From assembly GCF_017348835.2 (NCBI RefSeq), contig NZ_CP071375.1: a DNA stretch of 64,000 bases. One strand, written 5' to 3'. The notes beneath the pieces are model-generated. The model was not told the DNA's origin. It saw only the letters and a program-made list of their open reading frames with translations, and made no database searches. Below, piece after piece: positions 10,482 to 51,061 of the stretch. This DNA comes from Escherichia coli. GTDB taxonomy: Bacteria > Pseudomonadota > Gammaproteobacteria > Enterobacterales > Enterobacteriaceae. Made by a program: the position numbers and the translations under genes. Each line of letters starts with the position of its first letter. The stretch's first letter is position 1.

Positions 10482-10537
10482 AAATCTGCCTCTTTTCAGT
10501 GTTCAGTTCGTTAATTCATCTGTTGGGGAGTATAATT

Positions 10538-10555
10538 CCTCAAGTTAACTTGAGG
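10538..10555. promoter_or_regulatory. SoxR operator in the divergent soxS/soxR promoter region
   Basis: Perfect palindrome cctcaagttaacttgagg between the two start codons. Confidence 0.85.
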
Positions 10556-10566
10556 TAAAGCGATTT

Positions 10567-11031
10567 ATGGAAAAGAAATTACCCCGCATTAAAGCGCTGC
10601 TAACCCCCGGCGAAGTGGCGAAACGCAGCGGTGTGGCGGTATCGGCGCTGCATTTCTATGAAAGCAAAGGGTTGATTACCAGTATCCGTAATAGCGGCAA
10701 TCAGCGACGATATAAACGTGATGTGTTGCGATATGTCGCAATTATCAAAATTGCTCAGCGTATTGGCATTCCTCTCGCGACCATTGGTGAAGCGTTTGGC
10801 GTGTTGCCCGAAGGGCATACGTTAAGTGCGAAAGAGTGGAAACAGCTTTCGTCCCAATGGCGAGAAGAGTTGGATCGGCGCATTCATACCTTAGTGGCGC
10901 TGCGTGACGAACTGGACGGATGTATTGGTTGTGGCTGCCTTTCGCGCAGTGATTGCCCGTTGCGTAACCCGGGCGACCGCTTAGGAGAAGAAGGTACCGG
11001 CGCACGCTTGCTGGAAGATGAACAAAACTAA
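10567..11031 (+). CDS. soxR: MerR-family redox-sensing regulator with [2Fe-2S] cluster
   Basis: 154-aa ORF; MerR helix-turn-helix; cysteine cluster [12 protein letters not shown]. Confidence 0.97.
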
Positions 11032-11170
11032 AGCGCCACAAGGGCGCTTTAGTTTGTTTTCCGGTCTTTGTCTTTCTCTCTATCCCGCTGGTACACAGGA
11101 GGGTTTCCCCCGACGTCAACACACCTCATTCGAGCACGTGGTGGAGGTTCCGGTTGGTGTTGATGCTTTA
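11030..11170 (-). ncRNA. ryjA: Possible small RNA ryjA in the soxR-ghxP spacer
   Basis: Positional recall only; hairpin aaagcgccacaagggcgcttt lies at 11032-11056; no sequence-level verification possible. Confidence 0.2.
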
Positions 11171-11576
11171 ATTGTATGTCACCGACGTTTCTTCGCCAGT
11201 GTAAAAGTATACTTTTTAGCCGCAATATTTTTGTCATCTCAGACGATTTTTTATCGCAATCCTGAACGGTATACGGCTCGATAACGCTGCAATCTTGCGC
11301 ATCGACGATAACGTTTGCGCATCAATTGCCTGGTTTTTCATCGTCAAGACAATAAAAGAGAAAAAAGCAGCAAACTTCGGTTGAAAAAGCCGCTATGATC
11401 GCCGGATAATCGTTTGCTTTTTTTACCACCCGTTTTGTATGCGCGGAGCTAAACGTTTGCTTTTTTGCGACGCAGCAAATTGTCGCAAACCTGGAGCAGG
11501 AAGATAACGTTTCGCTGGCAGGGGATTGTCCGCCACGCATCTTGACGAAAATTAAACTCTCAGGGGATGTTTTCTT

Positions 11577-12926
11577 ATGTCTACGCCATCAGCGCGTACC
11601 GGCGGTTCACTCGACGCCTGGTTTAAAATTTCACAACGTGGAAGCACTGTCCGTCAGGAAGTGGTTGCCGGGTTAACAACGTTTCTGGCGATGGTCTACT
11701 CGGTCATCGTCGTTCCAGGTATGTTGGGTAAAGCAGGCTTCCCGCCTGCGGCAGTTTTCGTTGCAACCTGTCTGGTTGCCGGACTCGGTTCTATCGTGAT
11801 GGGTCTGTGGGCTAATCTGCCGTTGGCGATTGGTTGCGCCATCTCCCTGACGGCGTTTACCGCATTCAGCCTGGTGCTGGGGCAACATATTAGCGTACCT
11901 GTCGCGCTGGGTGCCGTGTTCCTGATGGGTGTGCTGTTTACGGTAATTTCTGCCACGGGTATCCGTAGCTGGATTTTGCGCAACTTGCCGCACGGTGTGG
12001 CGCACGGCACGGGGATCGGTATCGGTCTGTTCCTGCTGCTGATTGCTGCTAATGGTGTCGGTCTGGTGATTAAAAACCCGCTTGATGGTCTGCCCGTTGC
12101 GCTGGGTGATTTCGCGACCTTCCCGGTGATTATGTCACTGGTAGGTCTGGCGGTGATCATCGGCCTGGAAAAACTGAAAGTCCCTGGTGGCATTCTGCTG
12201 ACCATTATCGGTATTTCAATTGTCGGTTTGATCTTCGATCCTAACGTCCATTTCTCAGGCGTTTTCGCCATGCCTTCATTGAGCGATGAAAACGGCAATT
12301 CACTGATTGGCAGCCTGGACATTATGGGCGCGCTGAATCCTGTAGTCCTGCCAAGCGTTCTGGCGCTGGTGATGACGGCAGTATTTGATGCCACCGGAAC
12401 TATCCGCGCTGTCGCCGGCCAGGCGAACCTGCTGGATAAAGATGGGCAGATCATCGACGGCGGGAAAGCACTGACCACTGACTCCATGAGCAGCGTTTTC
12501 TCTGGCCTGGTGGGTGCAGCTCCGGCAGCGGTATACATCGAGTCTGCGGCGGGTACGGCGGCGGGCGGTAAAACCGGGTTGACGGCTATCACCGTTGGCG
12601 TGCTGTTCCTGCTGATTCTGTTCCTCTCTCCGCTTTCTTACCTCGTTCCGGGGTATGCAACGGCTCCGGCGCTGATGTACGTTGGCCTGCTGATGCTGAG
12701 CAACGTGGCGAAAATCGACTTTGCTGATTTTGTTGATGCGATGGCGGGTCTGGTTACGGCGGTATTCATCGTGCTGACCTGTAACATCGTAACAGGCATC
12801 ATGATCGGCTTCGCGACTCTGGTGATTGGTCGTCTGGTTTCCGGTGAATGGCGCAAGTTGAACATCGGTACGGTCGTTATCGCCGTGGCGCTGGTGACCT
12901 TCTATGCGGGTGGCTGGGCTATCTAA
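11577..12926 (+). CDS. ghxP: Guanine/hypoxanthine permease (NCS2/AzgA family)
   Basis: 449-aa polytopic membrane [31 protein letters not shown]... Confidence 0.93.
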
Positions 12927-12943
12927 TCTTTCATCGGATTCTG

Positions 12944-12977
12944 AAAACGGGTGGCAATGGCTGCCCGTTTTTATTTT
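12944..12977 (+). terminator. Rho-independent terminator after ghxP
   Basis: aaacgggtggcaatggctgcccgttt hairpin followed by ttattttctc. Confidence 0.65.
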
Positions 12978-13076
12978 CTCCGCACATTGTGTGAGCTTTT
13001 GCGATATTCTGAAAAAATGAGAATTCAGGCATAACGTCTTTCTCAGATCATAAAAAACATCGCAAACAGGGAACGC

Positions 13077-50272: not shown

Positions 50273-51061
50273 TCAGGCAGCTTTCGCGTTCTCTTCGACG
50301 CGGTTAATGCTGCGGTAGAGATGGTCAAAACGTTCGTTATCAAACTGTTGGCTGCTGCCGTCGTAGAAGACGTGCCCCTGACGAAGGGCGACGATGCGTT
50401 CGCAGTAGCGCAGGGCGTAATCCACCTGATGCAGCGTGACGACCACGGTGATGCCGTCGTTCTGATTGATGTCGCGCAGGGTGTCCATCACGATGCGGGC
50501 GGATTCCGGGTCCAGCGAGGCGATCGGTTCGTCCGCCAGAATCACCTTCGCCTGCTGCATCAGCGCGCGGGCAATCGCCACACGCTGCTGCTGTCCGCCG
50601 GAGAGGGTGGAAACGCGCTGATGGGCAAAATGCACCATGCCAACGCGGGTCAGCGCCTGTAACGCGCGCTGTTTCTGCTCGCGGGTGAACCAACTAAAAC
50701 AGGTGCGCCAGAACGGCGTGCTGCCGAGCGCGCCAATCAGCACGTTCTCCAGTACGCTTAGGCGATTCACCAGGTTGAATTGTTGGAAGATGTAGCCGGT
50801 GTTGGCGCGGCTTTTGCGGATATCGCGCGCCAGGCGGCCATTTTGCTGGACGGTGCGGCCCAGCAGCTCGACGCGGCATTCTGGCTTTTTATCGCCGACA
50901 ATCAGGCCGCTTAAGTGACGTAAAAGGGTGGATTTGCCGGAACCGGACGGCCCAAGCAGAGCCACCATTTCACCATGATGGATATTCAGATCAACCGCGT
51001 GCAGCGCCTGATGCTGATTGAAGGTTTTGCTCAGTTGTTCGACGCGGATAATCGTTTGCAT
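50273..51061 (-). CDS. phnC: Phosphonate ABC transporter ATP-binding protein
   Basis: 262-aa ORF; Walker [13 protein letters not shown] signature LSGGQQQR. Confidence 0.95.

Follow-up and report, generated by a model that had tools for sequence, protein, structure and literature searches.

The 64,000-nucleotide stretch of Escherichia coli DNA considered here (contig NZ_CP071375.1; the whole stretch is called the window, and all coordinates are window positions) contains the soxR–sraL–ghxP segment, whose annotated genes in other E. coli are soxR, ghxP and yjcE. The subject of this work is the control region of ghxP, 11295-11576. Nearly all of 5,426 complete E. coli genomes carry the region 10500-13100 at an identity of 95% or more, two pig isolates match it at 100%, and the GhxP annotation carried by 5,420 E. 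coli genomes confirms that the open reading frame (ORF) at 11577-12926 is ghxP, as an earlier reading of the sequence had assumed. The control region probably works at two levels, with operators for PurR in the DNA and a structured 5' untranslated region (UTR) in the RNA. The evidence obtained in this analysis consists of sequence matches, conservation, spacing constraints and RNA covariation. In vivo PurR occupancy and PurR- and adenine-dependent repression of ghxP are taken from the literature. The gene itself is laid out as follows.

11562-11567, plus strand: Shine-Dalgarno sequence AGGGGA of ghxP, inside the invariant block CUCUCAGGGGAUGUUUUC
11577-12926, plus strand: ghxP (yjcD) coding sequence, 449 amino acids, a guanine/hypoxanthine permease of the NCS2 family

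Motifs upstream of ghxP and published PurR control

By chromatin immunoprecipitation on microarrays (ChIP-chip), Cho et al. 2011 (PMC3159470) found a PurR peak named 'ryjA/yjcD', with a log2 enrichment of 2.08 in the presence of adenine and no peak in its absence. In window coordinates the peak extends from about 10930 to 11560 and covers all the sites discussed below. A passage of Kozmin et al. 2013, citing Marbach et al. 2012, states that adenine represses yjcD via PurR, and Kozmin et al. 2013 also report yjcD to be down-regulated 4-fold by HAP, a purine analogue converted to adenine. Furthermore, ghxP is a member of the PurR-1 iModulon. The purine-responsive PurR control of ghxP that the sequence-only reading had proposed is thus borne out by the literature, both by the adenine-dependent peak and by the PurR-dependent repression by adenine.

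That proposal was built on three copies of an AACGTTT motif, likened to the PurR operator. All three are present, a few bases away from where they had been placed: gatAACGTTTGCgc at 11307-11320 (read as 11307-11322), gctaAACGTTTGCtt at 11448-11462 (read as 11448-11465) and gatAACGTTTCGct at 11503-11516 (read as 11504-11517). The corresponding full 16-mers are ACGATAACGTTTGCGC (site 1, 11305-11320), AGCTAAACGTTTGCTT (site 2, 11447-11462) and AAGATAACGTTTCGCT (site 3, 11501-11516). The resemblance is genuine for the first two. Site 1 is letter for letter identical to the motif listed for the 'ryjA/yjcD' peak in Table 1 of Cho et al. 2011 (PMC3159470), and site 2 corresponds to the PurR site given by RegPrecise at -130. 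Site 3 has been put forward as a 'novel binding site' at -76 by a computational regulon-inference method of 2015 (PMC4576408). Each of the three motifs singly, and PurR control of the gene, are therefore already in the literature, and the PurR part of the present finding only confirms textbook regulation.

To judge the strength of the three sites, a PurR weight matrix was derived from Table 1 of Cho et al. 2011, with all 27 motifs except the yjcD entry, whose inclusion would have made the scoring circular. In leave-one-out scoring the training motifs span 7.8-25.1 bits. With 19.3 bits for site 2 and 18.6 bits for site 1, these two are the top matches among the approximately 64,000 positions of the window, the next-best match reaching 11.07 bits. 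Both are close to ACGCAAACGTTTGCGT, carry the central CpG and score within the validated range, as a PUR box does; they are called O2 and O1 hereafter. The score of site 3, obtained on the minus strand, is 7.2 bits, a level attained at 21 window positions.

Taken over the whole window, the heptamer AACGTTT shows no enrichment (16 matches, 11.3 +/- 3.5 expected), which would suit the view that the cluster is a chance feature of an AT-rich intergenic region. The clustering itself is unusual, however: three of the 13 distinct loci lie inside 203 bp, for which a Poisson estimate (lambda about 0.04) gives a probability of three or more of about 1e-5, or about 0.004 when corrected for some 315 such windows. 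The two top matrix scores of the window also fall here, O1 and O2 are nearly invariant and occur in all 80 species sampled, and PurR occupancy in vivo has been published (Cho et al. 2011, PMC3159470). Published occupancy, matrix scores and conservation have already refuted an explanation by chance, and its probability is negligible.

Operators around the predicted promoter

The phylogenetic footprint was taken from 80 ghxP loci, one per species; the genera sampled include Escherichia, Salmonella, Citrobacter, Enterobacter, Klebsiella, Kosakonia, Buttiauxella and Mangrovibacter. In addition, a 22-genus alignment was made, column conservation was computed over 78 distinct sequences, and spacing was measured over 81 sequences. 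The features of the promoter region are the following.

11295-11302, plus strand: upstream copy of the octamer TTGCGCAT; a second copy lies 20 bp on, at 11315-11322, at the right end of O1
11305-11320, plus strand: O1, the distal PurR operator ACGATAACGTTTGCGC (site 1), 18.6 bits, in 80 of 80 species
11381-11386, plus strand: -35 hexamer TTGAAA of the predicted ghxP sigma-70 promoter; GTTGAAA is invariant
11404-11419, plus strand: OM, candidate proximal PurR operator GGATAATCGTTTGCTT, 10.2 bits, overlapping the -10 hexamer and the predicted start
11405-11410, plus strand: -10 hexamer GATAAT, invariant; predicted start at about 11416-11418
11447-11462, plus strand: O2, PurR operator AGCTAAACGTTTGCTT (site 2), 19.3 bits, in 80 of 80 species

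O1 and O2 are found at high score in every one of the 80 Enterobacteriaceae species and stand as conserved islands amid diverged sequence, as a phylogenetic footprint should. The islands of the 22-genus alignment are TTGCGCAT-N2-ACGATAACGTTTGCGCAT, CAAAGTT-N2-GTTGAAA, GATAATCGTTTGC, GCGCGGAGYTAAACGTTTGCTTTT, GACGTTT, GGCAGTGGATTGTCCACCACGC and the Shine-Dalgarno block.

The sole sigma-70-like match in 10950-11700 consists of TTGAAA, an 18-bp spacer and GATAAT, and agrees with the consensus at 10 of 12 positions. Both hexamers and their spacing are invariant in 81 of 81 sequences. As this is the only good sigma-70 promoter in the region and neither its hexamers nor its spacing vary, we infer that ghxP transcription starts at about 11416-11418. 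The covariation in the RNA structure farther downstream, described below, implies that transcription runs through that structure. The supplement text of Kim 2012, Ettwiller 2016 (by coordinate prefix) and Adams 2021 has no entry for a mapped ghxP/yjcD start. Relative to the predicted start, the centre of O1 would lie at about -105, OM at -13 to +3, O2 at about +31 to +46 and site 3 at about +85 to +100. The 280 bp regarded as a leader in the sequence-only reading would thus be transcribed only in part: site 1 lies upstream of the promoter, and the predicted leader is about 160 nucleotides (nt) long.

Two further promoter candidates were discarded. A second promoter at O1, with TTGCGC as the -35 element, has no conserved -10 element at the right distance. 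A sigma-54 promoter, for which CTGGCAG-N-TTGTCC was compared with the consensus, does not have the GG-N10-GC spacing.

The distances between these features fall into two classes. The distance from the start of O1 to GTTGAAA is exactly 75 bp in 79 of the 81 sequences and 76 bp in the two remaining ones, both from Mangrovibacter. As this distance is fixed, O1 and OM are always 99 bp apart, centre to centre, in all species that have OM at 9 bits or more. The 59-bp spacer between O1 and the -35 element (11321-11379) has a mean pairwise identity of only 62%, with a minimum of 36%. A spacer that is constant in length but not in sequence indicates that O1 is constrained in its position with respect to the promoter, and suggests that the distal operator has to meet a stereospecific requirement. 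An equally good explanation of the fixed spacing would be contacts made with RNA polymerase or some other protein. The position of O2 is of the other kind. It lies 41-45 bp from the -10 hexamer in most species and 87-155 bp from it in Klebsiella, Raoultella, Kluyvera and their relatives, and the OM-O2 and O1-O2 distances are variable. That such shifts are tolerated fits a roadblock to elongation rather than an occlusion of the promoter.

Box OM had escaped the sequence-only reading. It is among 6 window positions that score at least 10.2 bits. In many genera it takes the form AGATAATCGTTTGCCT, which scores 13.6 bits, and 10.2-13.6 bits corresponds to the low end of the validated range. OM agrees with the PurR matrix at 9 of 10 high-information positions and is present in 78 of 80 species, but its overlap with the -10 hexamer explains part of this conservation. 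The CGTTTGC part of the box, downstream of the -10 hexamer, is invariant, and promoter function does not obviously demand this invariance. OM is a probable, though unproven, weak PurR operator. A sequence almost identical to OM, GGATAATCGTTTGCAT, occurs at 51046-51061 with a score of 10.7 bits. That match overlaps the start codon of a 262-amino-acid minus-strand ORF and is most likely due to chance.

The upstream copy of TTGCGCAT is invariant across the 80 species, and the TGTTGC just upstream of it is partly conserved. It is not a PurR box, as it is without the central CG and scores about -3 on the matrix. Another regulator might bind there, or the octamer might serve as an unusual element of the promoter.

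The leader RNA and the third motif

The leader RNA at 11437-11542 is a Y-shaped structure of about 105 nt, in which helix P1 closes a long arm (P2, P2b and P3) and a side hairpin, P4. Its parts are listed below.

11437-11443, plus strand: 5' strand of P1, GUAUGCG, pairing with 11536-11542
11445 with 11534, plus strand: G-C junction pair
Between P2 and P3: short helix P2b, UGCU/AGCA in most genera; 93% of cells pair in the covariance-model alignment
11464-11489, plus strand: hairpin P3, UUUGCGAC ... GUCGCAAA, directly 3' of O2, with 11464-11471 pairing with 11482-11489
11506-11516, plus strand: 3' strand of P2, AACGUUUCGCU (site 3), pairing with 11447-11457 of the O2 transcript
11517-11534, plus strand: hairpin P4, GGCAGGGGAUUGUCCGCC, between the 3' strands of P2 and P1; GUGGA-UUG-UCCAC in most genera
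11536-11542, plus strand: 3' strand of P1, CGCAUCU, with one mismatch (U11438 x C11541) and one G-U pair in E. coli

The left 11 nt of O2 also constitute the 5' strand of P2, and the invariant promoter is situated 20 nt upstream of P1. In E. coli, P1 and P2 carry one mismatch each and P4 pairs in a shifted register. P4 is absent in Mangrovibacter and Erwinia. In Klebsiella, Raoultella, Kluyvera, Pseudocitrobacter, Superficieibacter and their relatives (L031, L041-L046, L051, L054, L056-L063, L065, L069, L076 and L079 in our set of loci), 45-110 extra nt with additional GC-rich hairpins lie between the -10 hexamer and P1. As these hairpins are inserted early in the leader, the leader is evolutionarily plastic towards its 5' end and fixed over P1-P4.

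RNAalifold, given 28 diverged leaders and no prior structure, returned a long-range helix in two parts, of which one is P1 (GUAUGCGCGG with CCACGCAUAC) and the other is P2, where GCUAAACGUU, from the left of O2, is paired with GACGUUUAGC of site 3. Among single-sequence minimum free energy folds of 78 unique leaders, P1 is present in 71, P2 in 65 and P3 in 76. The explicit structure, comprising P1, P2, P2b, P3 and P4, was tested on a MAFFT alignment of 33 diverged leaders and on a covariance-model alignment of 83 distinct sequences. The controls were structures with their 3' partners slid by 1-3 columns, and 500 column shuffles.

In the MAFFT alignment 89% of the cells pair, with a covariation score of 0.246 and a compensatory change in 68 cells; the corresponding values for the slid controls are 32-44%, at most 0.063 and 5-21 cells. 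None of the 500 shuffles reached the observed value for four of five measures, and 7 of 500 did so for the compensatory-pair count. In the covariance-model alignment 92.7% of the cells pair, against 30-47% for the slid controls, and the covariation score is 0.251, against at most 0.053; 16 pairs and 178 cells carry compensatory changes, and the observed values were reached in 0 of 500 shuffles. The ghxP leader therefore has compensatory changes beyond those of the controls, which is the general mark of a structured RNA. By parsimony on a neighbour-joining tree of the ghxP coding sequences, each covarying pair has undergone 3-9 independent strict Watson-Crick switches, so that the signal does not stem from one inherited event.

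The helices contribute to this signal in different ways. One of the four P1 pairs with compensatory changes is UA in 49, AU in 14 and CG in 8 sequences. In P3, all five core pairs covary (GCGAC/GUCGC, GUGAC/GUCAC, GUGGC/GCCAC, GCAGC/GCUGC and ACGGC/GCCGU). In P4, 93.5-95.8% of the cells pair, mostly through one-sided G-U changes, and few of the changes are compensatory. In P2, the pair formed by O2 box position 3 (C or U) and its site 3 partner (G or A) is CG in 30-32, UA in 32 and UG in 14-15 sequences, with at least 6 independent switches. A further change in P2 occurs in loci L085/L086, which represent a more distant lineage with 85% GhxP identity. Here O2 is AGCTAATCGTTTGC and its partner is AAACGATTA, and UAAUCGUUU pairs with AAACGAUUA, so that an A-U pair inside the P2 core has been replaced, in a compensatory manner, by U-A.

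On the plus strand G-U pairs are common, and in 63 of 78 leaders the sense strand gives the more stable fold. The structured molecule is therefore the ghxP transcript. Leaders of Erwinia match the covariance model with E values of 1e-5 to 1e-7, and the model has no other match in the 64-kb window.

It could be argued that P2 is only a by-product, arising because one transcript contains two palindromic boxes of the PurR type, and that no RNA structure has been selected. Any two sequences near the palindrome ACGCAAACGTTTGCGT are mutually complementary, most P2 pairs never vary, and the z-score of the E. coli element is unremarkable. P1, P3 and P4 are unrelated to PurR boxes, and yet 93-95% of their cells pair, with compensatory changes, arising in many independent events, at 4 of 8 P1 pairs (including the junction G-C), 5 of 5 P3 pairs and 2 of 5 P4 pairs. 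Moreover, site 3 is not a conserved box, and the tolerance of G-U pairs is specific to the plus strand. The by-product explanation is accordingly very improbable.

These observations bear on the nature of site 3. The sequence-only reading had treated the three motifs alike and had considered three spaced sites to be unusual and suggestive of cooperative binding or additional regulators. Site 3 is a poor box. It mismatches the matrix at three high-information positions, two of them in one half-site, and it is not conserved as a box: among its orthologues in 85 leaders the best scores have their median at -3.5 bits and rise to 9.8 at most, none reaching 12, and over the 80 species an equivalent of 9 bits or more is found in only five Citrobacter loci. 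The usual sequence at this position in orthologues is GATGACGTTTAAC. Site 3 thus fails as a PUR box both by sequence and by conservation in orthologous control regions. The bases that are conserved in it are those that pair with the site 2 transcript in the covarying helix P2.

The idea that all three AACGTTT motifs are PurR operators, at which three dimers cooperatively repress ghxP, draws on the central AACGTT core common to all of them, on the independent prediction of site 3 at -76 (PMC4576408), on the half AGCGAAAC, a good half-site on the minus strand, on the 17.2-bit box at the equivalent position in L085/L086, and on the ChIP-chip peak, which spans all three sites. The score of 7.2 bits and the negative orthologue median contrast with the near invariance of O1 and O2, and PurR binding gives no reason for the conserved bases of site 3 to pair and covary with the O2 RNA. 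Three equivalent cooperative sites are very unlikely, and the real third PurR-like box is OM, over the -10 hexamer. The suggestion of an additional layer of control was right in spirit, although the layer appears as a structured 5' UTR and not as a third operator. Multiple PurR operators are not unprecedented either: at purB and purR, PurR binds within the reading frames, where it blocks elongation (Cho et al. 2011, PMC3159470).

The palindrome of the PurR box is centred on AACGTT, so that the RNA complementary to O2 has the look of a half-box; this is the simplest explanation for the operator-like appearance of site 3 in E. coli. Site 3 can be called a probable 'ghost' operator, one that arises from RNA complementarity with O2. 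In L085/L086 the O2 partner, at about -65 from the ghxP start codon, is ACGGAAACGATTACGT and scores 17.2 bits, and O2 is weak, at 10.2 bits. Operator strength and RNA pairing may have swapped strands in these two loci. A caution follows for motif-based regulon reconstruction, as a palindromic operator within a structured transcript yields a 'ghost' operator in the form of its RNA pairing partner. One published method has already scored the ghxP ghost as a new PurR site (PMC4576408).

Three other uses of the leader sequence were examined and rejected. A 22-codon ORF, MRGAKRLLFCDAANCRKPGAGR, at 11439-11507, begins with an ATG at 11439 in the 5' strand of P1 and ends inside site 3. It is rejected as a leader peptide because the ATG is AAG, ACG or CAG in many genera and covaries with the 3' strand of P1. 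The pairing of the P1 5' strand with ghxP codons 6-9, seen in the E. coli fold, is not kept when P1 varies and is ascribed to chance. Pairing of the P1 3' strand with the Shine-Dalgarno sequence is likewise not kept.

With regard to function, our best guess is that the leader RNA is a cis-acting element affecting mRNA stability or translation. There is an outside chance that it is a regulator responsive to a ligand or a factor. It is possible to go further and to regard it as a ligand-sensing riboswitch, or as a specific element binding a protein or a small RNA (sRNA), that adds post-transcriptional purine control to that exerted by PurR. The architecture of a three-way junction with covarying stems and the position in front of a purine transporter, a typical riboswitch context, are in accord with this. 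So are the unpaired CGG junction, the CUGGCA and the internal loop CA-GGA, which are nearly invariant within Enterobacteriaceae, and the invariant local hairpin that holds the Shine-Dalgarno region. The junction and P4 are not conserved in Erwinia and Mangrovibacter, however, which is not how a ligand pocket behaves; Rfam has no matching family even at E <= 10; no pairing to the Shine-Dalgarno sequence or to a terminator is conserved, the 3' strand of P1 covarying with its own 5' strand; and the literature search lent no support. A riboswitch or specific binding element is, on balance, rather unlikely.

The searches behind this assessment were the following. A scan of 10900-11700 against Rfam 15, whose families include the purine and xanthine riboswitches, at E <= 10 returned only sraL, on the minus strand, and terminator noise, with nothing in 11416-11576. 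In the literature search no paper came up that connects yjcD/ghxP to a riboswitch, CsrA, Hfq or an sRNA. The leader lacks an intrinsic terminator, and on inspection no alternative pairing with the Shine-Dalgarno sequence proved to be conserved. The conserved ghxP leader RNA is apparently undescribed: it is outside Rfam and the K-12 annotation, which has no feature between ryjA and ghxP, and no paper describing it was found.

Three GGA motifs in the leader resemble the CsrA consensus: CAGGAAGA at 11503-11510, in the internal loop (CACAAGGAGA in most genera), GCAGGGGAUUGU at 11520-11528, in P4, and CUCAGGGGAUGU at 11560-11571, at the Shine-Dalgarno sequence. Involvement of CsrA or of an sRNA at the ghxP leader is speculation, for which the literature search gave no support.

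The sraL match of the Rfam scan belongs to the divergent neighbour of ghxP. The genes on this side are as follows.

10567-11031: soxR
11024-11164, minus strand: sraL/ryjA small RNA gene (Rfam RF01408, 153.3 bits, E 1.4e-36; ryjA in the K-12 annotation)

The sraL/ryjA gene supplies half of the name of the published ChIP-chip peak and is outside the ghxP control logic. It overlaps the final bases of soxR, and its terminator hairpin is common to the soxR end; a terminator-like hairpin lies on the minus strand at 11055-11025. In most other genera a gene of the glutathione S-transferase family lies between the soxR-type gene of the MerR family and ghxP, as seen in Erwinia, in L085/L086 and in the conserved upstream coding sequence of the 22-genus alignment.

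A probable two-level model and its relation to known systems

By combining the published and the comparative information, it is possible to describe how ghxP may be controlled. Besides the transcription start, what we infer from this information is the role of each operator, the binding of OM by PurR and whatever regulatory function the RNA may have. With hypoxanthine or guanine in ample supply, PurR and its corepressor would bind the ghxP operators. PurR bound to OM would block the binding of RNA polymerase or the opening of the promoter, and PurR bound to O2 would act as an elongation roadblock, as it does at purB and purR. O1, at its fixed distance from the promoter, would reinforce repression in a position-dependent manner. 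In transcripts that are made, the 5' UTR of about 160 nt would fold into the conserved Y, in which the two strands of P2 would be the O2 transcript on the 5' side and site 3 on the 3' side.

Several observations weigh against this description or parts of it. The ChIP-chip data have a resolution of about 600 bp and their peak covers every site, and they therefore do not tell O1, OM, O2 and site 3 apart as the occupied site. The positions of the operators relative to +1 rest on a predicted promoter. The conservation of OM may be due partly or wholly to the -10 hexamer and the initial transcribed sequence. The site 3 equivalent of L085/L086 is a good PurR box, and PurR may bind there in some lineages. 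As to the RNA, the covariance-model alignment (A3) was fitted to the structure. The E. coli element is not exceptional thermodynamically, with z = -1.08 for the element alone and z = -0.97 for the whole leader with the first coding bases, and it carries the mismatches in P1 and P2. The case for the structure is a comparative one. Most P2 pairs are invariant and hence uninformative, so that P2 would stand on one strongly covarying pair, on the change in L085/L086 and on its nesting between P1 and P3.

The distal operator raises a further difficulty. PurR is known as a dimer without a tetramerisation domain, and for this reason no mechanism is established for the fixed distance between O1 and the promoter. 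PurR is not known to form loops or dimer-dimer bridges.

The two-level model nevertheless remains the probable one. A more ambitious version of it would cast the leader as a regulatory RNA that has gone unrecognised in Enterobacteriaceae. As a riboswitch, or as a binding element for a protein or an sRNA, it would sense purines after initiation and would be interlocked with PurR through the O2 transcript in its central helix, and the 99-bp O1-OM spacing could reflect a novel PurR repression complex. This version is speculative, and we consider it unlikely. The two-level model itself has consequences enough. In the best-studied bacterium, the leader of a purine permease gene carries an RNA supported by covariation, which is a concrete candidate for post-transcriptional control of purine salvage. 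The operator architecture is unusual, with two strong flanking boxes, a weak box on the promoter and a spacer of invariant length and variable sequence, and an arrangement with such a length-locked distal site appears to be new.

Compared with purine and xanthine riboswitches (e.g. RF00167), the ghxP leader is similar in occupying the 5' UTR of a purine permease gene and in forming a three-way junction with covarying stems. It differs from them in matching no Rfam model and in having no recognisable expression platform, and its junction is conserved only within Enterobacteriaceae.

As a member of the purine regulon, ghxP is typical in several respects. O1 and O2 are, like the PUR boxes of purF, purMN, purHD and xanP, 16-bp imperfect palindromes with a central CpG, and they fit the ChIP-derived matrix as well as typical validated sites of the regulon do. 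The adenine-dependent occupancy of the region by PurR and the repression of ghxP by purines, both known from the literature, are also those of the regulon. Most regulon promoters have a single box between or near the -35 and -10 elements (Cho et al. 2011, PMC3159470). Unlike them, ghxP has strong boxes that flank the promoter, at about -105 and +38, and only the weak box overlaps it.

The closest parallel to O2 is provided by purB and purR, where PurR binds inside the reading frames and blocks elongation (Cho et al. 2011, PMC3159470). O2 of ghxP, too, would be transcribed, and genera differ in how far it lies from the promoter, which fits a position-tolerant roadblock. It differs in lying in the 5' UTR and not in a reading frame, and in that its transcript is part of a conserved RNA helix.

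The arrangement of O1 and OM can be compared with that of the lac and gal operators. In lac, O1 and O3 are 92 bp apart; in gal, OE and OI are 113 bp apart. PurR belongs to the same LacI/GalR family, but differs from the repressors of these systems in being known only as a dimer, and the ghxP architecture poses the question in what way a dimeric repressor of the LacI family makes use of a distal site at -105. As in lac and gal, the ghxP operators bracket the promoter, and the 99 bp that separate the centres of O1 and OM are strictly kept in spite of the divergence of the sequence between them.

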